Below, in pieces: positions 22,290 to 38,478 of a stretch of DNA of 40,000 bases. The notes below the pieces were generated by a model. The model did not search any database. It had not been told where the DNA came from and saw only the letters and a program-made list of their open reading frames with translations. This stretch comes from an uncultured Desulfovibrio sp. (GTDB lineage Bacteria > Desulfobacterota > Desulfovibrionia > Desulfovibrionales > Desulfovibrionaceae). Within the stretch, counting starts at the first letter, position 1. Each line of letters begins with the position of its first letter. Made by a program: the position numbers and the translations under genes. The DNA lies in the NCBI GenBank assembly GCA_964576895.1, contig CAZNXQ010000004.1, forward strand, positions 1-40,000, written 5' to 3'.

Positions 22290-22310
22290 CTAGAGCATTT
22301 TGCGATTGAA
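22290..22310 (+). repeat. Left fragment of structured repeat copy A; ends in the attL core GCGATTGAA (22302-22310)
   Basis: CTAGAGCATTT matches the left terminus of the intact copy at 36806. GCGATTGAA is repeated at 31610-31618. Confidence 0.6.
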
Positions 22311-22336
22311 GTTACTCAAACAGTTTCAGAAAATCC

Positions 22337-22385
22337 AAGTATGTCCAGTTAGCATGTTATTTCAGCATGTTAACTGGACATACTT
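22337..22385. repeat. 20-bp imperfect inverted repeat just inside attL
   Basis: AAGTATGTCCAGTTAGCATG (22337-22356) and CATGTTAACTGGACATACTT (22366-22385) match at 19 of 20 positions, with a 9-nt loop. Confidence 0.7.
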
Positions 22386-22649
22386 GTCTTATGCCATCCA
22401 CCAAAATCCCTCTGAATCCGGAAAATCCGTTGGTAGACATGCTGGTAGTCTTTTGGTAGGTCAGAGCCGTCGATGATGGCATTTCCCAAGGCCGGACAGT
22501 GCGCCCCCGCCCCGGGGAAATCGGGAGGAGTGATTCCTCCCGCTATCGGCATATTTTCTGTAATCCATTGTGGTAAAAGTATTTTTCAGAAATATGCTGG
22601 TAGCAGTTAGTCCACCCGTACCAAAAAACACCACTCTGGAGGTGGATGG

Positions 22650-24035
22650 ATGAAACTGACCGACACATTCATACGGCATGTCGCGGCCAACGGCAAGGTT
22701 CAGAAGCACTCGGACGGCGGGGGGCTGTTCCTCTATGTCACGCCCACGGGCAAAAAGTCATGGCGGTTGGCGTACCGCTTCGCGGGCAGGCAGAAGCTCA
22801 TTTCCCTTGGGCCGTATCCGTCCGTGAGCCTGCGCGAAGCGCGGGAAAAGCGGGAAGACGCCAAAAAGCTGCTGCGGGAGCATATTGACCCCAGCCAGGC
22901 ACGACGGCAGGCCAGAGAAGCGGCGGCGGAAGCGGCCCGCAATTCCTTTGAGGACGTGGCGCGGGAATGGCATGCCAAGTATTCGCCAAAGTGGGTTCCT
23001 TCATACCGGAAAACGGTCATCCGCATCCTGGAGGAAAACCTCTTCCCCTATGTGGGCAAACGTCCCATCAACACCATCACGTCAAGGGAGTTGCTGACCG
23101 TTCTTCGGCGGGTGGAGGAACGGGGCGCGCTGACCATTGCCCACAAGGCGTTGCGTGATACCGGACGGATATTCCGCTATGCCGTTGTTACCGGCAGGGC
23201 GGAACACGACATTGCCGCCGATTTGCGCGGCGCGCTCGCCCCTGCCGCCAACGGCCATCATGCGGCCATTACCGACCCCGCCGGCGTGGGTGAACTGCTG
23301 CGTAACATTTACGCCTATGAGGGAAACTTTTTCATCTCCCGCGCCCTGCGTCTTGCGCCATTGGTGTTCGTCCGGGGCAATGAGCTGATCCGCGCGGAGT
23401 GGGCGGAAATCAATCTTGAGACGGCGGAATGGCGCATTCCGGCGGAACGGATGAAGATGAAGCAGATCCATATGGTGCCGCTCTCGCGGCAGGCCCTGGC
23501 GATTTTCCGGGAACTGCACGAGAAAAGTGGCGAAGGACGTTTTGTCTTTCCGGGCAGCCGTGTGGGAAACGACGACCCCATGTACAGGGGAGGCCCGCTA
23601 CGCGTTCTGCGGCAAATCGGCTGCGCCACCGGCGAACATACCTTTCACGGCTTCCGATCCATGGCGTCCACGCTCCTGAACGAGCTTGGCTATAACTCGG
23701 ACTGGATAGAGCGACAGCTTGCCCACTGCGAACGCAACGGCGTCCGCGCCGCGTACAATTATGCCGAGTATCTGCCGGAACGGCGGCGCATGGTTCAGGA
23801 GTACGCTGACTATCTCGACAGTCTGCGAGTGGCATCTGACAGTGCCGGAGCGGAAAAACAGAGCGACAAGCCGGAAGACGTTTTCAGAGAAATGAACACC
23901 GATGTCGCCATCGGGAAGAGAGACGAGCGCGCCCAAATCACGGAAAAGGACACGGGCTGGAGCGAGGCGTATCGGGAGAAACTGCGGGCCGCCGGGTATG
24001 ACGGCATGGACATTCTGCAAGCTTGGTACGGGTAG
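22650..24035 (+). CDS. int: Tyrosine recombinase, P4/CP4-57-type integrase (N-terminal DUF4102-type arm-binding domain)
   Basis: MKLTDTFIRHV..GGGLFLYVTPTGKKSWRLAYRFAGRQKLISLGPYP is the typical N-terminus. Catalytic region: FHGFRSMAST.., LAHCE.., VRAAYNYAEY. GGAGG lies 7 nt before the ATG. Confidence 0.92.
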   Translation: MKLTDTFIRHVAANGKVQKHSDGGGLFLYVTPTGKKSWRLAYRFAGRQKLISLGPYPSVSLREAREKREDAKKLLREHIDPSQARRQAREAAAEAARNSFEDVAREWHAKYSPKWVPSYRKTVIRILEENLFPYVGKRPINTITSRELLTVLRRVEERGALTIAHKALRDTGRIFRYAVVTGRAEHDIAADLRGALAPAANGHHAAITDPAGVGELLRNIYAYEGNFFISRALRLAPLVFVRGNELIRAEWAEINLETAEWRIPAERMKMKQIHMVPLSRQALAIFRELHEKSGEGRFVFPGSRVGNDDPMYRGGPLRVLRQIGCATGEHTFHGFRSMASTLLNELGYNSDWIERQLAHCERNGVRAAYNYAEYLPERRRMVQEYADYLDSLRVASDSAGAEKQSDKPEDVFREMNTDVAIGKRDERAQITEKDTGWSEAYREKLRAAGYDGMDILQAWYG

Positions 24036-24142
24036 CGAAAGAGTCCGGCCTGTGCGGAATCCGTGGCCGTTTCTGTGCCGCTCTCCGCCCTGACAGCAAA
24101 TCAAAAGCCTGAAACCTGGCGGCGGGGTTGCACTTTTCCTGA

Positions 24143-24361
24143 CCTCGCCGTCCCCTTTTTCTCTTCGCTGGACACTTCTTCTCCCTCCGCCGCTTCGCTG
24201 AGGAAAGCACATGGTGGCAGGGCTGCAAAGACGGACGTTATCCCAAACCCATAAAGTTGGGGCCACGCACAACCGTCTGGCGGTCAGCGGACATTTCCGC
24301 CCTCGTCAGGGGACTTTCCGGCCAGAACATAACAGGGGAAAATACCGAATCACAGGACTGA
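24143..24361 (+). pseudogene. Degenerate AlpA/excisionase-family (HTH_17-like) remnant
   Basis: This open frame translates to ..ESTWWQGCKDGRYPKPIKLGPRTTVWRSADISALV... It aligns without gaps to the AlpA C-terminal consensus as I recall it (..RSTIYRLMKEGKFPKPVKLG.R.V.W...EI..W). However, there is no ATG/GTG/TTG between the upstream in-frame stop (24140) and the motif, and the N-terminal helix region looks shortened. Confidence 0.4.
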
Positions 24362-25163
24362 AATGCCTTTCCCCTCTGACCGGTTTCCCAAACGCGGCGC
24401 GACCAGGGTATGAACCTTGACCGCGCCGCTTTCTTTTTGCCTCATGCACAATTTTCCGCTATGGTTCCCGAAAAACGGACGAACAAAACAGCCCATTCGC
24501 TTGCCGCAAATGATACGGCTTTTTCCCGAAAACGGGGCGGGTTCTTCGTGGCAGGATGGGGGGTGTGCTACGCACAGCCCCTCATCCTGCCAAAGGCTTC
24601 GCCTCTGGACTCCAAAGAGCGTTCGGCGCTTCGCTTCTCACGCTCGCAAAAAGGCAGGAAAGGCAAAAACGGGAAAGGAATGGGAAGAACTGGAAAGGCG
24701 ACCAAAAAACGCCGTGAAGCGGCCACGGCGAGTCTTGCTTCGCACGGGTTTTCCATATTGAACATTGCCCGGCATTTCCTGAAAGACCAGGAGAAGAAAA
24801 AGAACGGCGTTGCGGGACAGACAAGATCAAGCGAAAACGAGGCATATCTGATTGTTCCCGTGGGGGGCAAGAAGCGAGAGTTCGGCCCCGCCGTATGCTG
24901 TCTACCGGGAAATGGTCAAAAGGCGTTTCCCGAAACAGATGGACGAATCAAGGCTGAAGCGGTCATTGCTCTGTACATGCGCTGTGCCGGATAGACGCCG
25001 CAGGAGATAGCCAACGAAGTATTCAGACACACCCCCGCCCCAAGGGCAAAAACGCAAAACGGATAGACTATGGCCGCAAGGCGCGGCTGGTACACTTGTT
25101 TCCTCCTTATGGCTACCGTGGCTATATGGGCATACCAACCTCAACCATTCGCAGGAGTGATAT

Positions 25164-25919
25164 ATGGCTTCCATTTTCGATGTGTTTGGCAACGGCTCCG
25201 TGGGATCAATATTGAATACATTAGCCAGACAAGCTGGCTCAATGGCCAGCCAGGCTGGTTCTGCAACATCTGATTTTACGCGCAAGGTGCCTGGCGGTGT
25301 GGGTGGTCTTCTTGGCGCGGGCGCTTTGGGCGCATTGCTTGGGAATCTGGCATCAACAGATGTTCTTAAAAATGTCGGCTTGGTCGGCGCAGGTGCGGTT
25401 GCCTGGAACTTTTATAAAAAGTGGGCTGCCAAACAGGAAGGCCAGCAGGCGCAGACAACCAGGGGAGCTACATACGGGGAAAGCTCATGGCCGATCCAAG
25501 CATCAACAGCAGCACCATCTGAAGAAATGGTTGTGATGCAAATTGACCCAACATCCGAGTTGATTATGCGTTGCATGATTTATGCTGCAAAGGCGGACGG
25601 CAACATTGATGCTTCAGAGAAAACTCGCATAAACGCCATTTTAAAAAATATGATGGGCGGAAAAGACGTATCCGCGCTTCTTGCAAAAATGGAAGAAGAA
25701 ACTATTGACCCTTCAAAAATTGTCGCCGCCGCCCTGCCCCAACAGGCTGATGACATCTATCGGCTTTCCTGCTCTGTAATTGACATAGATCATTTTATGG
25801 AGCGTGGTTATCTGGATGCACTGGCTAATGCTCTGCATATTGCGCCCGCTATGCAGCGTGAAATTGAAGAAGAAGCCGGAGCGGCACGCAAGCAACTTGC
25901 CGCTTACATTGAAAGTTAG
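25164..25919 (+). CDS. DUF533 / TerB-like (YebE-family) membrane protein
   Basis: Gly/Ala-rich N-terminal region with a hydrophobic segment (GGLLGAGALGALLGNL..VGLVGAGAVAW), and a C-terminal TerB-like helical domain (..MIYAAKADGNIDASEK..IYRLSCSVIDIDH..ERGYLDALANAL). AGGAG precedes the ATG. Confidence 0.75.
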   Translation: MASIFDVFGNGSVGSILNTLARQAGSMASQAGSATSDFTRKVPGGVGGLLGAGALGALLGNLASTDVLKNVGLVGAGAVAWNFYKKWAAKQEGQQAQTTRGATYGESSWPIQASTAAPSEEMVVMQIDPTSELIMRCMIYAAKADGNIDASEKTRINAILKNMMGGKDVSALLAKMEEETIDPSKIVAAALPQQADDIYRLSCSVIDIDHFMERGYLDALANALHIAPAMQREIEEEAGAARKQLAAYIES

Positions 25920-25927
25920 GAAATCAA

Positions 25928-25973
25928 TGTATTAAACACTCCACAGATTAAATCCTGTGGAGTGTTCAATACA
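25928..25973. terminator. Long hairpin between the convergent DUF533 and Fe-S membrane genes
   Basis: TGTATT-A-AACACTCCACAG, loop attaaatc, CTGTGGAGTGTT-C-AATACA gives 18 paired positions with one mismatch. There is no clear U-run on either side. Confidence 0.45.
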
Positions 25974-26007
25974 TAGTACACAAATCGAGACAAGAGATAC
26001 GGTGAAG

Positions 26008-26604
26008 TCAGGAAGCGTTTATTGAAACCTTGCTTCTCCTGTGGCGAAGCTGACATATCCACTGCGTCATGGTGCCCATAGGGCAGAAGGCGCACCAGGT
26101 TCGCGGCTTGTACAGCGCCATCATGACGAGGCCCAGGAGAAAGGAGGTGAGCATGATGCTGTAAAAACCGAAGCTGAATTGGGCCACCCATTTCGGTACG
26201 GATGTTTCCGTATATGCCCAGTGCCAGGGGAGCTGGAATGTCCAGAACAGGCTGACGGTCTGGCGCAGAGACGTTGCTCCAGCCCCCACCAGCCACGTCT
26301 GAAAGAGCATATTCCCAAAGACCGCCAGGAAGAAAAACAGAAAACCATATCTGAACCAGCGGGAATACAACCACGCAGGCGTCGGTCTGTTGCGTGAATA
26401 CTTCAGCTCATGGCCGAGCTTCATGCACAACTGGCCGCGCCCGCAAAAATGATTGCAGAACAGCTTGTTCCCCCCGAAGATGGCGAAGCCAAGCGGTACA
26501 AGGAAGTCGATCATTCCCAGCCAGGCGAAGAGGATATTGAAGAAGCCCAGGCTGAAATACAGGATCGTCCATATCCACAGATAGTCATACCAATGTCGCT
26601 TCAT
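26008..26604 (-). CDS. Polytopic membrane protein with CxxxC/CxxCP motifs (Fer4_5 / NapH-MauN-like membrane core)
   Basis: There are several hydrophobic helices. Cysteine motifs FCNHFCGRG and WCAFCPMGT fall at loop positions, as in the NapH/MauN/RdhC-type family. An ATGA overlap with the upstream ferredoxin gene is present (26601-26604). Confidence 0.7.
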   Translation of the reverse strand: MKRHWYDYLWIWTILYFSLGFFNILFAWLGMIDFLVPLGFAIFGGNKLFCNHFCGRGQLCMKLGHELKYSRNRPTPAWLYSRWFRYGFLFFFLAVFGNMLFQTWLVGAGATSLRQTVSLFWTFQLPWHWAYTETSVPKWVAQFSFGFYSIMLTSFLLGLVMMALYKPRTWCAFCPMGTMTQWICQLRHRRSKVSINAS

Positions 26605-26813
26605 TGGGCGTCCCGCCTTTGCCTTTCCACAAGTTCAATGCAGTTTGCCGGACACAATGCGGCGCACCTCCCGCAGCCGACACAGGCGTCGGCCCTGATT
26701 TCGGCCCAGCAGCCATGCACGACTGTAGCGGCATGGCGCGGGCAAACGCTTTCACAGGTGCCACAGGCGACACAATTTTTTTGATTGACCACGGCATGAC
26801 GTCTGGATGGCAT
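26601..26813 (-). CDS. 2x[4Fe-4S] ferredoxin (70 aa)
   Basis: CVACGTCESVCP and CVGCGRCAALCP motifs. The start overlaps the DUF134 stop (TGATG at 26811-26815). Confidence 0.8.
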   Translation of the reverse strand: MPSRRHAVVNQKNCVACGTCESVCPRHAATVVHGCWAEIRADACVGCGRCAALCPANCIELVERQRRDAQ

Positions 26814-27193
26814 CAGTATTCTCCCCTGGTTGCCGGGCTATTTTCCGGAGATTGGCGCGGGTTCCCGAATCTGCGGCAGCCATGACCACAGTGCGGCCCT
26901 CCTTCGCACAACCGATAGTCGCCCCCCTCAATAATCAGCAGTTTTCCATTCACAAGCATGTCGGCCAGTTTCTTCCTGGCGCTGGCATAGGTTGCCTGAA
27001 TGCTGGTGCGGACAACATTCATTTTTTCGGCGCATTCCTGCTGCGTCATATCCTCAAGATCTATGAGGCGGATGGACTCGTATTCATCAACAGTCAGGAT
27101 GACAGGCGTTGCTGCTGAACGGAACCCCAGAGGCGCAAATCGCGTATTCTCCGGGAGGCAGCAGACTTTTCTGCATTTTCTGGGTCGTGGCAT
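26813..27193 (-). CDS. DUF134 (UPF0251) predicted DNA-binding protein
   Basis: [19 protein letters not shown].., [57 protein letters not shown] matches the DUF134 pattern. The start is taken at the second Met (27193; AGGA 6 nt upstream); 27199 is possible. Confidence 0.8.
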
Positions 27194-27302
27194 TGGCATT
27201 CCTGCAAAAAGCTAAAATGAAACTTTTTTCATAGGCGTTTCTTGCCGACATGGCATGGGGCATAGGAAAATATCGAATCCCATGATGGGAAAGGACAATG
27301 TC

Positions 27303-27335
27303 AGGGCGGTTTACGATTCTCTCGTAAACCGCCCT
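27303..27335 (-). terminator. Perfect 13-bp hairpin just after the DUF5320 stop
   Basis: AGGGCGGTTTACG, loop attctct, CGTAAACCGCCCT. The downstream sequence on the minus strand is only weakly U-rich, so it could be a terminator or a processing/stability element. Confidence 0.4.
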
Positions 27336-27340
27336 TGAGA

Positions 27341-27568
27341 CTACCGTGAAGAAAGCAGTTCATTTATCCGCGAAAGTTCCCCTTCAAGGGCTTTTTTCCT
27401 TTGGATCAGCCGTTCGGTTCCATCTTCGCGGGAGAATTGTTTTCCATAATTCATGCAGCAAGGCCCCTGGCCGTTTTGAGCGCCGAAGCCCGACTGGGCG
27501 CCCATATGCCGGAACCGTCTGCAATGTTGCCTTGCCCCACGCGCTCCTGCTCCATTTTGTCCTGGCAT
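27341..27568 (-). CDS. DUF5320-family small protein (Gly-rich N-terminus, C-terminal coiled coil)
   Basis: MPGQNGAGARGA..C.. followed by ..LIQRKKALEGELSRINELL resembles the DUF5320 layout that often accompanies DUF134 genes in anaerobes (from memory). AAGGAG lies 6 nt before the ATG at 27568. Confidence 0.65.
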   Translation of the reverse strand: MPGQNGAGARGARQHCRRFRHMGAQSGFGAQNGQGPCCMNYGKQFSREDGTERLIQRKKALEGELSRINELLSSR

Positions 27569-27581
27569 GGCGTACTCCTTT

Positions 27582-27638
27582 GTTATTGACATATGCCGTT
27601 AACTTTTTGTGGCAAACTTTATGACATATGTCAATAAC
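27582..27638. promoter_or_regulatory. 14-bp perfect inverted repeat pair upstream of the DUF5320/DUF134 genes (candidate operator)
   Basis: GTTATTGACATATG (27582-27595) and CATATGTCAATAAC (27625-27638) are separated by 29 nt. The pair starts 14 nt upstream of the DUF5320 ATG, and each half contains a TTGACA-like hexamer. Confidence 0.4.
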
Positions 27639-27644
27639 TATGCG

Positions 27645-27689
27645 ATAAAAATTCAAATGCCTCCCCCGGTATCCGGGAGAGGCATTTTT
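27645..27689 (-). terminator. Bidirectional-looking intrinsic terminator after the multiheme cytochrome gene
   Basis: GCCTCCCCCGG-tat-CCGGGAGAGGC (27659-27683). The minus strand continues ATTTGAATTTTTAT and the plus strand continues ATTTTT. It lies 26 nt after the cytochrome stop. Confidence 0.6.
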
Positions 27690-27708
27690 CTCAATTCAAG
27701 TCAGTGTG

Positions 27709-30180
27709 TTAGCAATCTTTCCTGGCACGACGGCGTCGAATGATCCAGATCAGCACGGGCAACGCCAGCACCGCAGCCACGATACCCAAGACCTTGACCC
27801 AGGCAATGCTGATGTTGTTCTCGCGCAATAAGCCCGCGTGCGCCTGTGGCGACGCGAAATCCAGGTCAAGGACTTCCGCCATTTTGCCCAGCATGGCGAT
27901 GGGAATGGCCCCCTGAGGGATGTCCTGATGGCAGGCAAGGCAGGTGTCACTGCGTTCCAGCGCATTGCGCTGTTCAGGCGTCAACGGCATGGAGTCGGGC
28001 CAGTGCGTATCCACGGTCTGCACCTGTGTTCCATCCGTGCGCAACACCTGCATGAAGTCGCCGTGCAAGCCCCGGATAGCCTGAATCTGGGGCTGGGTGA
28101 AGCGGCTCACGTTGCGACCGTCGGGGGTACGCACGTCTGCATAGCGAACCTTTTCGGGATGCAGGCCATACCGACCGCCATCGATCCCGTAGCCCATAGC
28201 CGCCGCATTGCCGTGGCAGTCCGCGCAGTTGCGGCTTTCACGCGAGGAAGTATGCGGGTTGAGCGGGGCCAACTCCATAGCGTTATAGCCCTTTTCGGTT
28301 TTAGCCACCTTATTCCAGGCAAGGGTCTTGCCGTCCGGACCGATGACCGTGCCCACGGTCTGGATGACGCCCACCAGCGGGGTGACACGCCCTTCGCCGT
28401 TGATGCCCAGCGGCGGGTTTTCCCAGCGTACATGACTGTAGTCCCAGGAAGTCGGCGCGCCGGGCTGATCGCTCATCTGTCCCTTGCGATCCGCCGGGCT
28501 GCCGTCAGGCAGACTCCGCTCCGCCGTCTTCAGCCAGTCTGTGGAACGCTGCCTGTAGTCCAGAGCATACTGATAGCCATAATACTGAGCTGCCCAAGTG
28601 GAGTGGCAGGCATAGCATTCCAGCTTTTCCATATGGCGGCCCACACCAACCATAGCTGTGGTGGCCAGGGCGGGATTGGCCCACTTGTTGGCCTGGCGCA
28701 GCCCCTTGAGGGGAATCAGCTCAAAATCATGACCATTGGCCGAATGCACGATGACCTTGTCCCCCCGGCGCACCACATTGCCAAAGGGATTGCCGCGTGC
28801 GGAAAGCAGGTAGCCATCCTCAGCATCGGAGGTATGGGCAAAGTCCTTTGTGACCTTCATGGCTTCCCGGCTCACACCGCGCGGCTTGTTCCAGTCCACA
28901 GGCTTGCCGAATTCATCGCCATAGCCAAGTGGCAGCTCCCAGGGATACTTGTCTGGCGTTCCATGACAGTCCGCGCATTCCACTTCGATGGTGGCCAGGG
29001 TGGTCGCGCCGATATTGCCATTACCATGCATGGACGTGCTCAGATGACAATCCTGGCACAACAGGCCTGCTTCCGTGCCGTTAACATCCTTGAGAGCGAA
29101 ATGGGCATCCTCACGGATATACTTGAACACATAGCCGCCATTGGCCTTTTGGGGTTCCCCCTGAGCATCAAAGGGACCTCGATGGTCACCATGACCGAAG
29201 GCCATAAGGCCCTGATAGGCGTGGCCGATACGCCTGCCAGCCGCATGGCAGGCCGCGCAGGTATTGACCTGGATTCCCGAGAACGACGCCCCGTTCACCG
29301 TTGTTACGGAATGGCGTGTTCCCTGCATGGCGTGGGTCATCAGATGGCCGGGCTGATCCTTGGGCAGCGCCTTGTCGCCGCCTTCGTAATACCCTTCGTT
29401 GCTGTACAGCGTATGGCAGGCGGCGCAGCCCACACCCCGGAAATGTCCCCTGTCCTGATAGCCCTTGCCGCTCAGATGACAGGCATTGCAGTTGCGCAGA
29501 TAGGTGAACGCGGCCTGTTCCGGCTGTTCGGCCAGCTTCGCCATGTCCACTTCAGGGATCTGTTGCAATTTTTCCGGGAACTGTCCGGGAAAACGCCCGG
29601 CCAGATCCTTCATGTAGGCCCTGTACGCCTCCGTTCCAAGGCGCGGCGTCATACCGTCCGGGTCATCAAGATCGTGGTCGCCGTAAATGTGGTCATGGTT
29701 CCGGGTTCCGATGCCCCAGCTCCAGGTGATGGCCTTCATTTTACCCGCATCCGTGTTCATGTGCGAACGTCTGACCGCATAGACATGATCCGCGTGACAC
29801 TGACCGCAGGTCGCGTCATTGAGTTGCAAAGCGCCGGGTGTGGCTGTGAAGGTCGTCAGCCGACTCCCCGCCGGGGCCAGGCTGTGTGCGATGTCCTTGT
29901 TCTGCACTTCCGCAGGCGTTCCGGCATGGCAGACAACACAGCCGTTGGGGTCGCCCAGCTCCCTGCCTTTAGCGAAAATGGCCTGCATCATGCCGGATTC
30001 CGGCGGGCGGGGCGGCTCAATTCCCTGATGACAGGCAAGACAATACTGATTTTCAGCGGGAAAAATTTTTGCGGCTCCGGTTGTTGCCGCTGTTGCCGCT
30101 CCAGCGGTATCCGCAGAGCCCGGATTCATAGCGAACATCAGGGAGACACATAAAAACAGCAGAGGCAATGGCGATTGCAT
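27709..30180 (-). CDS. Undecaheme c-type cytochrome, periplasmic with C-terminal membrane anchor (823 aa)
   Basis: There are eleven CxxCH motifs, with first Cys at residues 47, 81, 125, 231, 252, 308, 375, 402, 522, 652 and 747. An N-terminal signal peptide (..LFLCVSLMFAMNPGSA) and a C-terminal hydrophobic helix plus a basic stop-transfer (IAWVKVLGIVAAVLALPVLIWIIRRRRARK) are present. A strong AAGGAGG precedes the ATG at 30180. Confidence 0.9.
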   Translation of the reverse strand: MQSPLPLLFLCVSLMFAMNPGSADTAGAATAATTGAAKIFPAENQYCLACHQGIEPPRPPESGMMQAIFAKGRELGDPNGCVVCHAGTPAEVQNKDIAHSLAPAGSRLTTFTATPGALQLNDATCGQCHADHVYAVRRSHMNTDAGKMKAITWSWGIGTRNHDHIYGDHDLDDPDGMTPRLGTEAYRAYMKDLAGRFPGQFPEKLQQIPEVDMAKLAEQPEQAAFTYLRNCNACHLSGKGYQDRGHFRGVGCAACHTLYSNEGYYEGGDKALPKDQPGHLMTHAMQGTRHSVTTVNGASFSGIQVNTCAACHAAGRRIGHAYQGLMAFGHGDHRGPFDAQGEPQKANGGYVFKYIREDAHFALKDVNGTEAGLLCQDCHLSTSMHGNGNIGATTLATIEVECADCHGTPDKYPWELPLGYGDEFGKPVDWNKPRGVSREAMKVTKDFAHTSDAEDGYLLSARGNPFGNVVRRGDKVIVHSANGHDFELIPLKGLRQANKWANPALATTAMVGVGRHMEKLECYACHSTWAAQYYGYQYALDYRQRSTDWLKTAERSLPDGSPADRKGQMSDQPGAPTSWDYSHVRWENPPLGINGEGRVTPLVGVIQTVGTVIGPDGKTLAWNKVAKTEKGYNAMELAPLNPHTSSRESRNCADCHGNAAAMGYGIDGGRYGLHPEKVRYADVRTPDGRNVSRFTQPQIQAIRGLHGDFMQVLRTDGTQVQTVDTHWPDSMPLTPEQRNALERSDTCLACHQDIPQGAIPIAMLGKMAEVLDLDFASPQAHAGLLRENNISIAWVKVLGIVAAVLALPVLIWIIRRRRARKDC

Positions 30181-30250
30181 GAGACCTCCTTATACCACTA
30201 TATCATTATCTGGACTTACTATACCAGCAAAAAAGTGTCCAGAGGAGGTT

Positions 30251-30350
30251 CCATCAACTCAGGGGAATTTTATGGAACTGCATCATAAAAAATATATAAT
30301 TATTCCAACATATTATTTATCAGCGCAATCACTGTGACCATCAACTCAGG
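30251..30350. repeat. 13-bp direct repeat CCATCAACTCAGG x2 (30251-30263, 30338-30350)
   Basis: The two copies are exact and 87 bp apart. They bracket the AT-rich region between the mobC stop and the cytochrome RBS, and the second copy overlaps the mobC stop codon. Confidence 0.7.
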
Positions 30351-30699
30351 ATACATGCCCGACCTTCAGTCCATTTTCCGCTGAAGCACAGGATGCGAAC
30401 TCGGCAATACGCCGCTCGATGCCCGCCAGCGCCGCCAATACCTCCACGGCTTCCGCCGCCCGTTTGCAGGTATTGGCCCATCTCGCAAGCTGATTGATGT
30501 TCGCGCCGATGCGGGCCAGCTCTCGCAGCCACCGTTTCTCTTCCGGCGTTTTTCGCAGGCGGATGCCAAGGCAGGTCGGGCGGACATACTCCGACATACT
30601 CATGCCGTGCAGCCCGGCGTTGAAGCGGAGGATGTCGCGCTCCTCCGGGAACACGCGCACGATGACGGCGGCGGTGCGGACGGGCTTGACGCGCTTCAC
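30346..30699 (-). CDS. mobC: MobC-family relaxosome accessory protein (orphan; no relaxase follows)
   Basis: ..AAVIVRVFPEERDILRFNAGLHGMSMSEYVR.. and the family motif L.ELARIGANINQLARWAN. GTG start at 30699. Confidence 0.75.
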   Translation of the reverse strand: MKRVKPVRTAAVIVRVFPEERDILRFNAGLHGMSMSEYVRPTCLGIRLRKTPEEKRWLRELARIGANINQLARWANTCKRAAEAVEVLAALAGIERRIAEFASCASAENGLKVGHVS

Positions 30700-31609
30700 C
30701 GCTTTCCCTGCCTTTGGGCTTTCCGGGGTTCAAAGGGGCAGCGCCCCTTGCCAGCCGTGAGTCCATACGCGCAGCGTATAGACGAAACGTAGGCTGGCCC
30801 TCGGAGACAATGCCGGACGAATGAACAGGCATCCGCGCAAAAACGGGGACGCATGATGCGGGCACCAAGAATATGGCGGGTGCGTATCAGACGTGGAGCG
30901 GAGTTGTATCCGGCGTGTCGCTGGTGGGTATGACGGCGGCATCCAGTAAGCATTCGGCTTGCAGGAAAATGGTATGTGAGGAACGCCTGAACACTATGCG
31001 GAAGCCGTGCAGTCAGTATCTGACACAAGACAAGGTCAGCATGATGCGCATGACGGAGCGGGCATCTGAAGCAGGGCGGGAGGCAACGCTATATGTATCG
31101 GGAAAACTCTGTGGAGCATACGCCGGGACAGATTTGCATGTATCGTTTCCGCCGCGTGTCAATATGCGGGAAAACCGTGAACGGCGAGAAACGCTTTTTT
31201 TATGTCTTTGTGCTTCTGGTCTGCGAACTTCCTTTGACCGAGCCCCCGCCGGAGGCTTCCTCGTCCGTCGCCCGCGAGTGTATGAGGCCGGAAGCCAGGG
31301 CATGAACGTCAAGGCCCGCGAAGCGGCCCAACAGGGCTTGGCCTTGACGGAATGCCCGCTTCCGGCATCCATGCGGGAGTGACGGACGAAGAGCCGGGAT
31401 TTCCCATTTCCCGGCAAGGATACATGAGAAATGTATGGCAAATGAAAATGCCGGGAGGCTTTCACCTGCCCGGCATGTGGAGACTGACCATTGAAGGCTG
31501 ATACAGTCCTCTACAAGCCAGAAAGAATGTTGGTACTATAGTTGGTATAAATATTTCATAAAAATATTTTCATAATATATTTCATTATATTATAAAAATA
31601 ACACAACTC

Positions 31610-31750
31610 GCGATTGAAAATATCCATTTTCAATCGCGGCGTCGCCTGCCATTTCGCGTCCAGAACGCGGTCTGGACGCTTATTCGGCGCGGGCGTCTGC
31701 TCACGCAGCCGCCAGCGCGTTTACGCAATTTCATTGCGAAAACGCGCTGG
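31610..31750 (+). repeat. Right part of structured repeat copy A (attR core GCGATTGAA at 31610-31618, hairpins, conserved 65-nt core)
   Basis: Hairpin 1: CGCGATTGAAAAT-atcc-ATTTTCAATCGCG (31609-31638). Hairpin 2: GCGTCCAGA-acgcgg-TCTGGACGC (31655-31678). The terminal hairpin is CCAGCGCGTTT-A-CGCAAT-ttc-ATTGCG-A-AAACGCGCTGG (31712-31750). By hand alignment, roughly 85-90% identical to 36873-36938. Confidence 0.7.
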
Positions 31751-32561
31751 CGCGCGACAGTCCGGGGCTGGTGCCGAAGATGACGAGTTCCATCCAGTCC
31801 AGGGCAAAATCCAGCGCGGCCGCATCGCCCTCCGCGCTGTCTTCCATGATGCGCGCCTGGAGGTCGGGGGCCACCGTCACCCGCGAAAAGATGCGCATGG
31901 CGCTGATGAGCTCGCGGAATTTGTCCAGCTGGTACAGGCAGAGCACGGCCATGGTGGCCAGCCGGGGTTCCAGCGGTTTTTCCGTGGCGCGCACCATGGC
32001 CATGAGGCGCATGTAGCGGTCATTGAAGCGCGAGTACGGCTCCATGCCCTGGTCGGCAAACCATTGGGCGGGCGTGCGCGCCGTGCCCTGGTCAAAGCCG
32101 CGGCAATGCTCCTCCCGCACCAGGAAGAAGCGTTCGGCCACCCCCTCCATGCCCATCCGGGTGCCGCGGCCCAGGGGATAGCAGCGGCAGGCGCCGGGGC
32201 GGTCGTCATAGACCGAGCAGCCGGCCGGGGTCACGAAGGGGCAGGGGGCGTCCGGGCTTTCGAGCATCCGCAGGAGTGGCAGGGGAAAGCCCGTGTCCGG
32301 GAAGGAACGCAGGGTGGTGAAGGTGTGCAGGAAATCGTCACCGGCCATGCCGAGCTGGCGGCGCAGCCGCAGGACGTCATAGGGCGTGAGCGGCAGGGTC
32401 AGCTCCGCGCAGCAGCGGTTGAAGCAGGGCATGTGCGGCCCGCAGTCGAACACGAAGGTTTCGTCCGGCCCGATTTCGGGCAGGCTTTCCAGGAGCTCGC
32501 GGCTCTTGTCGTTGCCGGAATGTTCCGCGTCGGAGGGGGCGGGGGTGGGGGTGCCGTCCAT
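31731..32561 (-). CDS. YkgJ-family (UPF0153, CxxCxxCC) cysteine-cluster protein
   Basis: FDCGPHMPCFNRCCAEL and CPFV..GCSVYDDRPGACRCYP motifs. ATG at 32561 (MDGTPTP..). The last ~7 codons and the stop lie inside the repeat hairpin. Confidence 0.75.
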   Translation of the reverse strand: MDGTPTPAPSDAEHSGNDKSRELLESLPEIGPDETFVFDCGPHMPCFNRCCAELTLPLTPYDVLRLRRQLGMAGDDFLHTFTTLRSFPDTGFPLPLLRMLESPDAPCPFVTPAGCSVYDDRPGACRCYPLGRGTRMGMEGVAERFFLVREEHCRGFDQGTARTPAQWFADQGMEPYSRFNDRYMRLMAMVRATEKPLEPRLATMAVLCLYQLDKFRELISAMRIFSRVTVAPDLQARIMEDSAEGDAAALDFALDWMELVIFGTSPGLSRASAFSQ

Positions 32562-32586
32562 GGATGCTCCCGTGGGCCGCCTGGGG

Positions 32587-33411
32587 TCAGAACGCAAGCC
32601 GGCGGCGTTCGCGGTTGATGAAGATGACCGAGTCCGTGAAGCCGAAGGAGCGGGCGTAGTCGCCCAGCCGGTCGAACTGGCGGCCCACATCCTCCGGGGC
32701 ATGCGCGTCCGAGCCGAAGCAGATGTCCACGCCCGCTTCCCGCGCAAGGCGCATGACGGGCGGCGCCGGATACGGTTCCGCAAAGCCCTGGCGCAGCCCG
32801 GCGGCGGAAACCTCCATGGCCGTGCCGCTGGCGGCCAGCGCCTCCAGCGCCGTCATGAGGGGCGCGCGGCTTTCCGGACCTTCCAGCCAGGCGTGAAAAT
32901 CGTCCCAGGCGCGCAGCTTGATGAAATCCGGATGCGAGGCCACCTGGACAAGACCGCTGCGCGCCATGGAGGCCATTTCGTAAAAATAGGCGGCAAAGCG
33001 GGCGCGGCGTTCCGCCGTGCTGACGCGGGCGTCCCAGCTGGCGGGGGCGCCCACGGACATTCCGTCCAGATAGTGGAGCGAACCCAGCACATAATCAAAG
33101 GGCCACGCCGCCACAAGCTCGCGCATATATGCCAGCCGCGAGGGCAGCCAGTCCAGTTCCAGGCCGAGGAGAACGCGCGGGCCGTCCGGGGGCGCCGTTT
33201 CCCTGAGCCGCAGCACTTCAGCCGCATAGCGGGGAAAGTCGCGCGCAAGGTCGCCCGTGTAGAGCGCGCAGTGGAAGCCCTCCGGCAGGGGCGAATGCTC
33301 GGAAAGGCCGAACCACGCGAGCCCGGCGGCGCGGGCGGCGGCCACCATGCCCCCGGCGCTCGCCGTGCCGTGCGAGGCCAGGGTGTGGTTGTGCAGGTCG
33401 GCGCAGATCAT
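32587..33411 (-). CDS. PHP-family phosphoesterase (histidinol-phosphatase HisJ/HisK-like)
   Basis: MICADLHNHTLASHG.., SEHSP, GLELDW and GSDAH are metal-binding His/Asp motifs of the PHP family. ATGA overlap with the ribF stop. Confidence 0.75.
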   Translation of the reverse strand: MICADLHNHTLASHGTASAGGMVAAARAAGLAWFGLSEHSPLPEGFHCALYTGDLARDFPRYAAEVLRLRETAPPDGPRVLLGLELDWLPSRLAYMRELVAAWPFDYVLGSLHYLDGMSVGAPASWDARVSTAERRARFAAYFYEMASMARSGLVQVASHPDFIKLRAWDDFHAWLEGPESRAPLMTALEALAASGTAMEVSAAGLRQGFAEPYPAPPVMRLAREAGVDICFGSDAHAPEDVGRQFDRLGDYARSFGFTDSVIFINRERRRLAF

Positions 33412-34388: not shown

Positions 34389-34419
34389 GGCAAGGGCTCA
34401 GGAACGCGGCTTGCGGCCG

Positions 34420-34464
34420 GGGACGCTGGAGCGTTCGCGCGATTTCATCGCCAAACCGCTCTAG
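34420..34464 (+). repeat. Partial, diverged copy C of the structured repeat (terminal hairpin only)
   Basis: GACGCTGGAGCGTTCGCGCGATTTCATCGCCAAACCGCTCTAG aligns to the last ~45 nt of copies A and B at roughly 80% by hand. The hairpin is retained by compensatory changes. The terminal CTAG provides the stop codon of the minus-strand gene 34461-34934. Confidence 0.55.
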
Positions 34465-34934
34465 ATCAGCCTGTCGAAAATGAAACGGTACGTCCCGCGA
34501 ATGTGGAGCGCGAGCTTGAGCGTCAGCGTGCGGCGCGCCTTTTCATCCCGATCGGTAAAGGACGTGAGATGCCGCGCCACTTCGTTGAAATCCGCGTCGC
34601 CCGTGGGCTGGAGCATGCCCCAGTATTGCCGCGCCCGTTCCGCCGCGAGCCTGGCCCCCTTGTCCGGATGCCGCGTCAGATAGCCGTGAAGGAAGGTGGC
34701 GAACATGGCATCCGCGTCGCTGGGGAAGGAGCGGGCGAGCGCAAGGCGCCAGAGCGCCATATGCAGCCCGCGCAGTTCCAGGATCATCTGGCGGCGGCGC
34801 AGGAACTGAAAACGCCCGATGCCCGCGAGCTCCAGCTCGGCCGTGAAATCCGCGTCTTCCAGAAGGGCGGCGAAATTGTCCAGCGCCACCTGGGCAATGC
34901 CGGGTGCATCGTCGAGTTCCGCAAGATTCTGCAT
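34461..34934 (-). CDS. Hypothetical protein (157 aa)
   Basis: The ORF has coding-like composition and an ATG at 34934 preceded by GGAG. I recognise no family. Confidence 0.5.
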   Translation of the reverse strand: MQNLAELDDAPGIAQVALDNFAALLEDADFTAELELAGIGRFQFLRRRQMILELRGLHMALWRLALARSFPSDADAMFATFLHGYLTRHPDKGARLAAERARQYWGMLQPTGDADFNEVARHLTSFTDRDEKARRTLTLKLALHIRGTYRFIFDRLI

Positions 34935-35039
34935 GGCGCTCCGTCCGATTAACAACTGGCGGGATCCTGAAGAAATGCCCGGAGTCCCGCGCGAGTTTCG
35001 GCGGCACGGGTGCCGCCGTTCCCACCTGCGGGAGTGTGG

Positions 35040-36761
35040 TCAGTCTTCGCCGGCGTCGGGCGTGGCCGCGCCGCTGGGTGCGCCGCCATGGCCTTCGCCG
35101 TTCCTGCGGCCCCTGGAACGGCGCCGCCGCTTGCGCGCGGGCCGTTCCCCTGCGTCGGTCCCTGCCGTTGCTTCCGCGGCCTCCGCGGGGCCGGATGCGG
35201 GCGCTTCGGCGCGGGCGCCGCGCCTCCCGCGGGAGCGGCCCCCCCTGCCGCCGCCGCGCCCTCCGGACGCCCTGCCGCCCTCCGGCGCGGGCCCGGCTTC
35301 CGGGAAAAAGCGGCCTTCGCGCAGGCGTTCCTGGTGGCAGGCATCCAGAAGCATGGCGAGCAGGAGCAGGTTGTCATTTTCCTCGCCCTCGGCCTGACCG
35401 GGGGTGGGCTCCTGGCGGGCAAGGTCGCGCGCGAGGTCGGCATAGCGCGCCACGCGCATGCGCTCAAGGCCGGTCAGGCCGCGGTAGCGCGCTTCGAGAA
35501 CGGCCATGAGGCGCGCGGAGGCGGCCTGCGCCACATCGGCGTCCGTGGGCGCGGCAAGCTCGATGAGATTGATCTTGTAATGCCGGGCGATGCGCTCCAG
35601 TTCCATGCGCTGCATGACGTCCACCAGGGAAATGACCGTCCCCGCCGAACCCGCGCGGCCGGTGCGCCCGGCGCGGTGGATGTAGCTTTCGTGGTCTTCC
35701 GGCGGTTCATAGAGAAACACATGGGAAAGGGCCGGGATGTCGATGCCGCGCGCGGCAACGTCCGTGGCCACGAGGTACTGGAGCGTGCCCTGGCGCACCT
35801 TTTCCAGCACGGCCTCGCGCCTGCTCTGGGTGAGGTCGGCCGAAAGGCCGTCCGCGCTGTAGCCGAAGCCCTGGAGCACGCCCGCCACATAGTGAACGTT
35901 GGCCTTGGTATTGCAGAAAATGATGGCCGAGGCCGGGTTTTCCGTCTCCAGCAGGCGCACGAGGGCGCGGTCCTTGTCCATGGGCTTGACTTCGCAGAAG
36001 AGGTGCTGCACCTCGGCCACATGGACTTCCCTGCGGGAGAGGGAGAGCATGTCCGGCTCGGTCATGAATTCCGCCGCGAGCCGCAGCACATGAGGCGGAT
36101 AGGTGGCCGAGAAAAGGCAGGTGTGGCGCCGGGCGGGCAGGTAGCGCTGGATCTCCTTCATGTCCGGATAAAAGCCGATGGAGAGCATGCGGTCCGCCTC
36201 GTCGAAAACGAGCAGGCGCACCTGGCCGAGATCAAGGGTATGCCGGAGCAGATGGTCGAGCACGCGCCCCGGCGTGCCCACGATGACCTGGACCCCGGCG
36301 CGCAGGGCGTCCATCTGCTTTTTGTAGCCCACGCCGCCATAGATGGCGCAGACGTCGATGCCGGTCCCGGAGAAAAGGGTGGCCGCCTCGCGTTCCACCT
36401 GCAGGGCGAGCTCGCGCGTGGGCGCCAGCACCAGGGCCTGCGGCGCCTTGAGCTCCGGGGACAGGGCGGCGAGCATGGGCAGAAGATAGCAGCCTGTCTT
36501 GCCGCTGCCTGTGCGCGACTGCACCATGATGTCGCGCCCGGCGAGCAGATAGGGCAGGGCCAGGGACTGGACGGGCATGAGCTGTTGCCAGCCGGCCCGC
36601 GCGCAGGCGGCCTGAAGGGCGGGCGCAAGCCCGGCGAGCGTCACGCCGGGGAGCGAGTTTTCCGGTTCGCTGACGGAAACGCCCGCGAGCTCGTCATGCG
36701 CGGCGGGCGCGCTCCCGGCGGGCACCTCCTCCGGGGGCAGGGAAGACGGGGAATCCGGCAT
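35040..36761 (-). CDS. DEAD-box ATP-dependent RNA helicase with Arg/Gly-rich C-terminal tail
   Basis: Q-motif region (..[10 protein letters not shown]), motif I (SRTGSGKTG), PTRELA, DEAD (FDEADRML), SAT and [10 protein letters not shown]. The C-terminal tail is [31 protein letters not shown]. The first ATG is at 36761. Confidence 0.9.
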
Positions 36762-36805
36762 ACAACGACCTTTACGCGCAGGGCGCGCCAAAATCGGGAA
36801 GAACG

Positions 36806-36938
36806 CTAGAGCATTTGGCTGATGAACATATCTGTCTCACAGATATTTTCATCAGGTTTCGCCGCCTCATTACGGCGCGGGCGTCCGCTCCCGCGTCCGC
36901 CAGAGCGTTCACGCAATTTCATTGCGAAAACGCTCTAG
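36806..36938 (+). repeat. Intact copy B of the structured ~130-bp intergenic repeat
   Basis: Termini are CTAGAGCATTT .. AAAACGCTCTAG (imperfect terminal inverted repeats). Internal hairpin: GATGAAcATATCTGT-ctc-ACAGATATtTTCATC. Terminal hairpin: AGAGCGTT-ca-CGCAAT-ttc-ATTGCG-aa-AACGCTCT. It lies between the divergent helicase and hisI genes. Confidence 0.7.
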
Positions 36939-37111
36939 GGCGGCGGCTTCCTCGGACTGTGTGGGCTGCACCCTACGCCATTCCCGCCGGTTTCGCAAGG
37001 CGCCGGGCGGGGAAATGCGGCTTGCCCGTCGCGGGGAATGCGCTTAGAACAGGGGGCGGTGCGCGGGCGCGCATTCCGGCGCAAAGAATTTCGCGGCCTG
37101 GAGGAGGGAAC

Positions 37112-37588
37112 ATGGGCAAGGGGCACGAGACGGCGGCCACAACGGGCACGGGGGCGCGGGCGCTCCCCGGCGCGGAGTTCGCCCCGGCGTTCGGGGGCGG
37201 CCTGCTTCCGGCAGTGGTGCAGGACGCCGCCAGCGGCGAGGTGCTCATGCTCGCCTGGATGAACGAGGAGGCGTGGCGCAGGACGCTGGAGAGCGGGGAA
37301 GCCCATTTCTGGAGCCGCAGCCGCCGCGAGCTCTGGCACAAGGGCGCCACATCGGGGCATGTGCAGCGCGTGCGCGCCGTGCGCCTTGATTGCGACAGCG
37401 ACGCCATTCTTCTGCTTGTGGAACAGGCGGGCGGCGCGGCCTGCCATACCGGGCACCGCACCTGCTTTTTCCGGGAATGGCGCGAGGGCGCGCTTGCCGT
37501 GTGCGCCCCCATGGTTTTTGACCCTGCGGCCGTCTATGGCGCGGCCGCCGCATCCGGCCCCAACCCCAGTCAAGGGAGCGACGCATGA
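37112..37588 (+). CDS. hisI: Phosphoribosyl-AMP cyclohydrolase
   Basis: [24 protein letters not shown].., FWSRSR.ELWHKG.TSGH.Q.V..V.LDCD.D.ILL.V.Q.G.ACHTG..CFF. GGAGGAGGG precedes the ATG at 37112. The ORF-track start at 36815 lies in the repeat and was rejected. Confidence 0.85.
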
Positions 37589-38478
37589 GCGCCCAGAATC
37601 GTCCCATCCTCAAGCTCGGCGTGCCCAAGGGCTCGCTTGAGGACGCCACCATCCACCTGTTTGAACGCGCCGGCTGGAAGATCCGCAAGCATGCGCGCAA
37701 CTATTTTCCGGAAATCAACGATCCTGAGCTTTCGGCCTCGCTCTGCCGCGTGCAGGAGATCGGCGGCTATGTGGCCGCCGGTGTTCTGGATGTGGGCATT
37801 ACCGGGCTGGACTGGCTGGGCGAGCGCGGTCATGAGGGGGCCGTGGTGCGCGTGGCCGATCTCGTCTATTCCAAGACCTCGTCGCGGCCCTGCCGCTGGG
37901 TGCTGGCCGTGGCCGGGGATGCGCCCTACACCTGCGCGGCCGACCTGGCGGGCAGGCGCGTGGCCACGGAACTGGAAGGGCTCACCCGGCGCTATTTCGC
38001 CAGCAAGGGCGTGAACGCCGAGATCTTCTATTCCTACGGCGCCACCGAGGCCAAGGTGGTGGAAGGGCTGGCGGACGGCATCGTGGAGGTGACGGAAACC
38101 GGGACCACCATCCGCGCCCACGGGCTCAAAATCATTGACGAGGTCATGATTTCGTATCCGGTGCTCATCGCCAACAGGGAGGCCTGGGCCGATGCGCGTA
38201 AGCGCGCCAAGATCGACCAGATCACGCTCCTGCTCCAGGGCGCCCTGCGCGCCGAAAACCTCGTGGCGCTCAAGATGAACGCGCCCGCCGACCGCCTGGA
38301 TGCCATTCTGGAAATGCTGCCCTCGCTCAACTCGCCCACGGTTTCGCCGTTGCGCGACACGGCGTGGCTTTCGCTGGAAACCGTGGTGGAGGTGGGCATC
38401 GTGCGCGACCTCATCCCGCGCCTGCGGGCCGCCGGGGCCGAAGGCATCATCGAGTACGCGCTGAACAAGGTGATCTGA
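37585..38478 (+). CDS. hisG: ATP phosphoribosyltransferase (long form)
   Basis: [22 protein letters not shown].., [32 protein letters not shown], and the C-terminal regulatory domain. ATGA overlap with hisI. Confidence 0.9.

Follow-up and report, generated by a model that had tools for sequence, protein, structure and literature searches.

The TA within 5'-CTAG-3' is said to have been described by Tenzen and Ohtsubo in 1991 as the target of IS630. Elements of the IS630 family insert at, and duplicate, a TA dinucleotide, and only their ends are needed in cis (PMC2170065). The closest precedent for the repeat described here is RUP (repeat unit of pneumococcus), a 107-bp MITE that has been attributed to IS630-Spn1 (PMC2229807).

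Our subject is a repeat family found in 40,000 nucleotides of an uncultured Desulfovibrio sp. (the window), which comes from contig C4 of an assembly, here G000, of 2.19 Mb in 272 contigs, with 65% G+C and 84% completeness. An earlier note on the window had described three copies (A, B and C) of a structured intergenic repeat of about 130 bp, with compensatory substitutions in its stems. We find that the repeat is very probably a non-autonomous MITE of the IS630/Tc1-mariner type, inserted at the TA of CTAG or YTAR sites in the genomes of gut Desulfovibrio. The anatomy of the element, its TA flanks, its filled and empty sites and the match of its ends to an IS630-family insertion sequence (IS) can all be seen directly.

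Results

Anatomy of the element

Copy B (36806-36938, plus strand) is an intact MITE with both ends, laid out as C-TA-[element, 36809-36935]-TA-G, with the sequence CTAGAGCATTTGG…AAAACGCTCTAG; it matches positions 2-165 of the nhmmer model with 118.5 bits. Downstream of the TA at 36807-36808 lies the left terminal inverted repeat, GAGCATTTGG (36809-36818), which is followed by hairpin 1 (HP1; 36819-36855), folding into a 16-bp A+T-rich stem with a 5-nt loop. Hairpin 3 (HP3, GGCGCGGGCGTCCGCTCCCGCGTCCGCC; 36874-36901) is the most widely kept module and lies inside the core model R1. The outer arm of hairpin 4 (HP4; 36902-36936) is the right terminal inverted repeat, next to the TA at 36936-36937; all of these features are given on the plus strand. 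The imperfect terminal inverted repeats that had led to the description of copy B as MITE-like (GAGCATTTTG… / …CAAAACGCTC, 10-13 nt) are present both in this copy and in the family consensus.

A full family copy is longer, at about 165 bp and up to about 185 bp, and the copies as a whole measure 133-185 bp, within the limit of 300 bp taken for a MITE of this type. Its order is TA and the left end GAGCATTTTG, HP1 with its 16-bp A+T-rich stem, a short linker, HP2 (GGCGGAAAAGCGTGGTTTTCCGCC), HP3 (GGCGCGGGCGTCYGCTCCCGCNNCCGCC), HP4 (AGAGCGTTTACGCAATTTCATTGCGAAAACGCTCT) and TA. In the nearest species, represented by the human-gut MAG UMGS998 (G017), the ortholog of copy B on contig C140 (URHE01000140.1) is 51 nt longer, and window positions 35178-37700 align with that contig in one piece at 91%. 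From this alignment copy B reads as an internal deletion derivative that lost 51 nt, comprising the HP2 region, between CCGCCT direct repeats. One HP1 pair differs between the two orthologs, being T-A in copy B but G-C in G017. Since paralogues commonly show either state, the difference can be explained simply by gene conversion between copies.

The non-coding interior is a mosaic of four to five interchangeable hairpin modules, and indels between copies are not multiples of 3. Copy A and the copies on contigs C5, C38, C9 and C66 carry a different HP1 (GCGATTGAAAATATCCATTTTCAATCGC) and a module HP2b (GCGTCCAGAACGCGGTCTGGACGC), an additional hairpin (CCCCGCAGAGCGGGAC) is found in some copies, and the copy at C62:4346 is a recombinant that combines a B-type HP1 with HP2b. 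The 5' hairpins of copies A and B, which the earlier note found completely different in sequence, are two such alternative modules. HP4 consists of two end sequences placed face to face, its inner arm oriented like the left end. Among full G000 copies the HP1 loop occurs in two reverse-complementary forms, CTG-TCTTA-CAG and CTG-TAAGA-CAG (alignment columns 30-34); a loop present in both orientations, as if the palindrome flips, is the behaviour of a DNA palindrome.

Copy number and distribution

All three copies in the window were confirmed by sequence at the positions first assigned to them, but a family of three was a large underestimate: BLAST, together with an nhmmer profile of 14 full copies, found 71 distinct loci in G000, about 20 of them full length and many at contig ends, and copy B itself derives by deletion from the element of about 165-185 bp. 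Because the assembly is fragmented, this copy number is a lower bound.

With a full copy as BLAST query, 11 of 24 congeners were matched; the 16 genomes searched outside the genus but within the order gave no match. The earlier note had proposed scanning relatives with a covariance model, and such a scan with R1 (82 positions, 22 pairs) matched 26 of 111 congeners, seven of them at high copy (G000, G002, G017, G068, G095, G102 and G103). The exact HP3 pattern, searched in the genomes of 185,579 species, was confined to MAGs and isolates of gut Desulfovibrio and to Ca. Mailhella merdigallinarum. More distant congeners have elements built to the same plan from other modules: a left end, an A+T-rich hairpin, G+C-rich hairpins, HP3 and a face-to-face pair of ends. 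Our literature search found no paper describing a Desulfovibrio MITE, and a 2024 review of MITEs names neither Desulfovibrio nor IS630; the element is of an ordinary kind, and its family is apparently undescribed.

A second repeat, of about 135 nt, was also noticed. It has two hairpins (CTTCAGCCGT…ACGGCTGAAG and CCGTAAGCnnGCAAAGCnnGCTAACGG, the latter with a covarying apical stem) and is found in G000 at C153:~683-818 and C2:~29290-29425 (minus strand), with many copies in Desulfovibrio sp. ZJ369 (L036, L037, L052, L059, L060 and L075) and in MGBC126123 (L081, L093 and L104). It is placed inside MITE copies, between HP2b and HP3, and in C2 it lies in frame within a helicase-like ORF. A group II intron was considered as its identity and set aside, there being no Rfam match.

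Insertion sites

Flanking TA dinucleotides were found on the left in 12 of 18 and on the right in 12 of 18 G000 copies, and in other genomes on each side in 27 of 36, against a TA share of 1.4% among all dinucleotides of the genome. Beyond the flanking TA the bases vary, being mostly Y on the left and R on the right (in other genomes, C precedes the left TA in 16 of 27 cases and G follows the right TA in 10 of 27), and the inner G and C are invariant. These flanks fit the duplication of a TA within YTAR/CTAG targets, as reported for IS630.

We compared 20 G017 copies, with their flanks, against G000. Two sites filled in G017 are empty in G000: one at C38:~9305, and one at C201:~2357, where G000 has GTAA, spanning a stop codon, and G017 has GTA-GAGC…. 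At C11:~29010 (29008-29019), also filled in G017, G000 has only a short remnant (TAGAGTAGAGCAGTTTA, TAGAG-TAGAGCAGTTTA), which would have been left either by excision or by an internal deletion of nearly the whole element. In the opposite direction, the copies at C14:11388 and C14:11703 of G000 are absent from G017:C12. The second of these sites is clean, reading CTCTAGTTGG in G017 and GTC-TA-[GAGC…GCTC]-TA-GTTGG in G000. At the position orthologous to the copy on C62 the G017 assembly breaks. From differences in both directions between the two genomes, we infer that the element has moved.

The tetranucleotide CTAG is about 15-fold under-represented in G000 (474 sites, where base composition predicts about 7,000). 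Of 435 CTAG sites outside the elements, 154 coincide with stop codons and 190 lie between genes. Of 93 complete element ends, 17 fall exactly on a stop codon, 13 of them among 51 ends on the HP4 side and four among 42 on the HP1 side; these gene-context statistics use gene calls from a GC3-based ORF filter. The contacts follow from the supply of CTAG targets and from the G and C at the element's ends, which rebuild TAG, and with 154 of 344 non-genic CTAG sites being stops, special targeting of stop codons is unnecessary to account for 17 of 93 ends. Because the first base of the element is G and its last is C, CTAG is restored at either side of every insertion; where the target is a TAA or TAG stop codon, a TAG stop is restored, so that copies can sit exactly on gene ends without harm.

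The stop codons that two minus-strand genes were said to take from the repeat agree with the ORF list. In copy C, the TAG stop of a hypothetical ORF (34461-34955, minus strand) is the terminal CTA at 34461-34463. In copy A, the right flanking TA has decayed to TG, and a ykgJ-like ORF (31731-32783, minus strand) consequently takes in six codons of the element before it stops at a TGA of the HP4 loop (31731-31733).

The IS630-family relative

Twelve DDE_3 transposases were found in G002, which is Desulfovibrio sp. ZJ369 (its contig L023 is 100% identical to NZ_JAAKEI010000004.1), and none in G000, G017, G019 or G022. The best-placed ZJ369 IS (L136:1033-2026) is 994 bp long, has 39% G+C, is TA-flanked within ATAG and carries two overlapping ORFs across an A-run. 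Its transposase scores 136.8 bits against the NCBIfam IS630 model NF033545 (cut-off 100) and about 1e-37 to 7e-37 against Pfam DDE_3, with HTH motifs upstream. The right end of this IS, GAGCATTTTGCTTTT, equals the left end of the ZJ369 MITE over 15 nt and the G000 consensus over 12 nt; in other copies of the IS the right end reads GAGCATTTTGCTTTTAAC…, to be compared with GAGCATTTTGCTTTTGAA… in the ZJ369 MITE (15/15) and GAGCATTTTGCTGA… in the G000 consensus (12/12). MITE and IS have no similarity beyond their terminal 12-16 nt, so that the MITE does not derive from the IS by simple deletion. More distant IS630-family ISs in G051, G113, G125, G074 and G013 all end in TA followed by GAGC(A/G)…, and some resemble HP4 variants. 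The ZJ369 IS copy itself has an IS200-like Y1 transposase gene (L136:476-835, minus strand) on one side and, on the other, a P4-type integrase gene (L136:2026-3261, minus strand) with its 3' end towards the IS. The right TA-G of the IS abuts the end of the integrase gene, and 110 bp to the left of the IS there is a solo end sequence.

Transposase homologues of more than 80% identity occur only in G002 and G102. A partner IS was not found in G000 by PF13358, by tblastn with the ZJ369 transposase or by blastn with the IS DNA, in an assembly that is 84% complete and of a kind in which repeats often go unassembled. Three other high-copy genomes that are at least 91% complete (G095, G103 and G068) have no close homologue of the transposase, and G068 has only remnants of 45% identity. 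MITE copies are 98.8% alike in ZJ369 and 87.8% alike in G000, which points to a recent burst where the IS is present and to older copies where it is not. With no matching transposase assembled and copies only about 88% alike, those of G000 are most likely older and now stranded.

Together, the ends, the targets and the filled and empty sites suggest that the element was moved by a ZJ369-type IS630-family transposase. A DDE transposase of this family, supplied in trans, would bind both ends, excise the element and paste it into a TA, preferably inside CTAG or YTAR, and the target TA would be duplicated on insertion. In G000, copy B has lost its 51 nt between short direct repeats, and copy A was later taken as the landing site of an integrase island.

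Copies A and C

Copy A is split by this island, which occupies 22311-31609, is 9.3 kb long and low in GC, and is inserted in HP1. To its left, 22290-22310 (plus strand; CTAGAGCATTTTGCGATTGAA) holds CTA, the left terminal inverted repeat and the first arm of an A-type HP1, cut by the island; to its right, 31610-31750 (plus strand) holds A-type HP1, HP2b (GCGTCCAGAACGCGGTCTGGACGC), HP3 and HP4, with a match to R1 at 31637-31719. The 9-bp sequence GCGATTGAA is duplicated across the island (22302-22310 and 31610-31618). Intact A-type elements exist elsewhere in the genome (C5:24551-24699, C38, C9 and C66), the integrase of the island (22650-24035) has Arm-DNA-bind_3 and Phage_integrase domains, and the ortholog of copy A on G017:C67 is unsplit and has no island. 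Among the functions that the earlier note had entertained, that of a recombination target is real for copy A, which served the integrase island as a landing site.

Two further A-type left ends in G000 are cut after GCGATTGAA or a variant of it, at C267:1238 and C83:4360, and continue into a conserved island end, …GTTTCAGAAAA…ATGTCC. These junctions suggest that other islands occupy similar sites. The short contigs C267 and C83 have no assembled integrase.

Copy C, placed by the earlier note at 34420-34464, is a solo HP4 mini-element (34427-34464, plus strand), TG-GAGCG…CGCTC-TA-G, with an nhmmer match at 34417-34463, and the same solo palindrome occurs at C14:13257-13294 and C236:178-218. Solo hairpins of this kind are explained by HP4 being two ends placed face to face: they may have moved on their own as mini-elements or may have arisen by internal deletion. 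G000:C113, orthologous to a filled G017 site, holds an internally deleted copy in which the left end is joined to the HP4 loop, a deletion that shows one route to solo hairpins. At G000:C236:178-379 a solo HP4 mini-element and a full MITE share one TA (…GCGAAAACGCCC-TA-GAGCATTTTG…), a tandem that is to be expected if every insertion recreates a CTAG target at its ends.

One feature of the element sits less easily with the IS630 reading: its interior shares the high G+C of the host and keeps its stems, for which a purely selfish element has no obvious need. The hairpins might be meaningful cargo, through which the MITE spreads structure-specific landing sites (A-type HP1 for the island, the interior for the second repeat of about 135 nt), or they might be needed for transposition of the element itself or for stabilising neighbouring mRNAs. 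We regard this extension as rather unlikely; if it is true, an IS630-type hitch-hiker seeds attachment sites on which other mobile elements depend.

Structure conservation and the rival readings

The earlier note had estimated by hand that the cores of copies A and B are about 85-90% identical, and the right part of copy A matches copy B at 90.2% over 61 nt. Both of the compensatory pairs that it had seen in the terminal hairpin are present: an outer-stem pair (AGCGCG/CGCGCT in A, AGAGCG/CGCTCT in B and C) and an inner-stem pair (CGCAAT/ATTGCG in A and B, CGCGAT/ATCGCC in C). Across 17 full copies, 97.2% of cells are paired against 95.5% in shuffles, and seven pairs show two-sided changes against 2.5 in shuffles, values that 0 of 500 shuffles reached in either case. 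Paired columns vary by 3.9% and unpaired columns by 14.1% (Mann-Whitney p = 3e-8), which makes the stems 3.6 times less variable. Part of the covariation signal comes from subfamily descent and gene conversion, because the copies are related and exchange whole modules. Some structural constraint on the hairpins is real, yet it is not diagnostic of RNA. The contention that the hairpins are kept despite sequence drift stands, but nothing indicates a dedicated RNA, a terminator or a REP/RAYT system. An IS or MITE end free of structural constraint, which the earlier note had named as one of two contrary outcomes, describes half of what we see: the ends match an IS630-family IS, but constraint is present in the interior.

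These data bear on the proposal that the repeat is primarily a functional RNA (a terminator, a 3'-end stabiliser or a small RNA) kept for gene expression. Such an RNA would account for the strong folding (z about -7 to -8), for compensatory changes beyond those in shuffles, for the low variability of the stems and for the 17 element ends that abut a stop codon, 13 of them at the HP4 end. However, both strands fold equally well, as for DNA palindromes (in copy B, against shuffles, the plus strand gives z = -7.2 and the minus strand z = -8.1). The elements lie in either orientation, the spacers that hold them are convergent (9), tandem (13) or divergent (5), their presence differs between sister species at orthologous sites, and the stop contacts match the target supply of non-genic CTAG (154/344). 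The Rfam search that had been advised gave 0 matches in the window at the gathering score and 0 at E <= 1 on three full copies. The signature of a G+C-rich hairpin followed by a T-tract was found in neither B nor C, and its sole match in A is HP1 followed by island DNA; for want of a T-tract an intrinsic terminator was ruled out. A functional RNA is thus a very unlikely primary identity for the repeat, and the dedicated terminator, 3' stabiliser or REP hairpin that had been favoured at the outset is not supported as its primary nature: it lacks an Rfam match, a T-tract in B and C and, in three high-copy genomes, a RAYT gene, and contacts with stop codons follow CTAG supply.

Still less probable are REP/BIME-like palindromes, bound by a host protein, spread by a RAYT and assembled into mosaics. 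The family is indeed a mosaic of G+C-rich imperfect palindromes with conserved stems, its modules recombine between subfamilies, and HP2b and HP3 contain CGTC/GACG, which recalls the CGTC-tagged REPs (PMC3733652). Against this, REPs lack terminal inverted repeats and a TA duplication, both of which mark the elements, and CGTC is paired within the stems rather than forming an unpaired tag; by inspection, the stems also lack the starting A-T pairs of the CGTC families (PMC3733652). A Y1/RAYT gene (PF01797) is absent from the high-copy genomes G000, G017 and G068, and the PF01797 genes of G095 and G103 are ordinary IS200-like copies. The REP/RAYT explanation was rejected on the lack of a Y1 transposase in three high-copy genomes and on inspection of the stems against REPs as defined in PMC3733652, palindromes of 20-40 bp that carry an unpaired GTAG or CGTC tag.

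A MITE from a family with a 4-bp target duplication (CTAG), such as the relatives of IS5 or IS1380, has hardly any probability left, for although the commonest flanks are CTAG…CTAG and C14:11703 fits 4 bp as well as 2 bp, it is ruled out by the variable outer flank bases, only TA being constant outside (C on the left in 16/27, G on the right in 10/27) while the inner G and C never vary, and moreover GTAA at C201 became GTA-G… and not GTAA-A…, and the matching IS belongs to the IS630 family (NCBIfam, Pfam) and is itself TA-flanked in ATAG.

Discussion

The IS630-type MITE family accounts for many of the contig breaks in gut Desulfovibrio MAGs, for a good share of the TAG stop codons and CTAG sites, and for cases in which a gene is slightly prolonged at its end, the six final codons of the ykgJ-like gene among them. 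It opens no new kind of system. It is, rather, a tidy example of an IS630-type MITE, in which the end bases make insertion at stop codons harmless, the copies outlast the transposase and the hairpins are reused as landing sites.

RUP resembles the Desulfovibrio element in being small, non-coding and high-copy, with IS630-like terminal inverted repeats and insertion at TA, and in both cases mobilisation in trans is deduced from the similarity of ends (PMC2229807). The two differ in that their sequences and host phyla are unrelated, and in that the Desulfovibrio element is 133-185 bp long and modular, with a G+C-rich interior, strongly prefers CTAG/YTAR, and has a presumed partner IS that is absent from the G000 assembly.

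With IS630 of Shigella sonnei and ISY100 of Synechocystis the element shares TA duplication and short terminal inverted repeats, which suffice in cis (PMC2170065). Like IS630 it prefers CTAG, and its relative in ZJ369 encodes a transposase with HTH and DDE_3 domains (NF033545). Unlike IS630 and ISY100, it encodes nothing. With the IS of its congener it has only 12-16 terminal nucleotides in common.

The Correia/NEMIS elements of Neisseria (see also PMC2229807) are likewise TA-flanked MITEs, of about 100-155 bp, that form long hairpins when transcribed and are often gene-adjacent; their sequence is unrelated, and Correia elements fold through long terminal inverted repeats, whereas the Desulfovibrio element folds through separate internal hairpins. 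RIME/BIME mosaics and CGTC-tagged REPs (PMC3733652), finally, are similar in their variable combinations of palindromic modules and their G+C-rich stems, and the Desulfovibrio element is set apart from them by its terminal inverted repeats, its TA duplication, the lack of a RAYT and the pairing of its CGTC.
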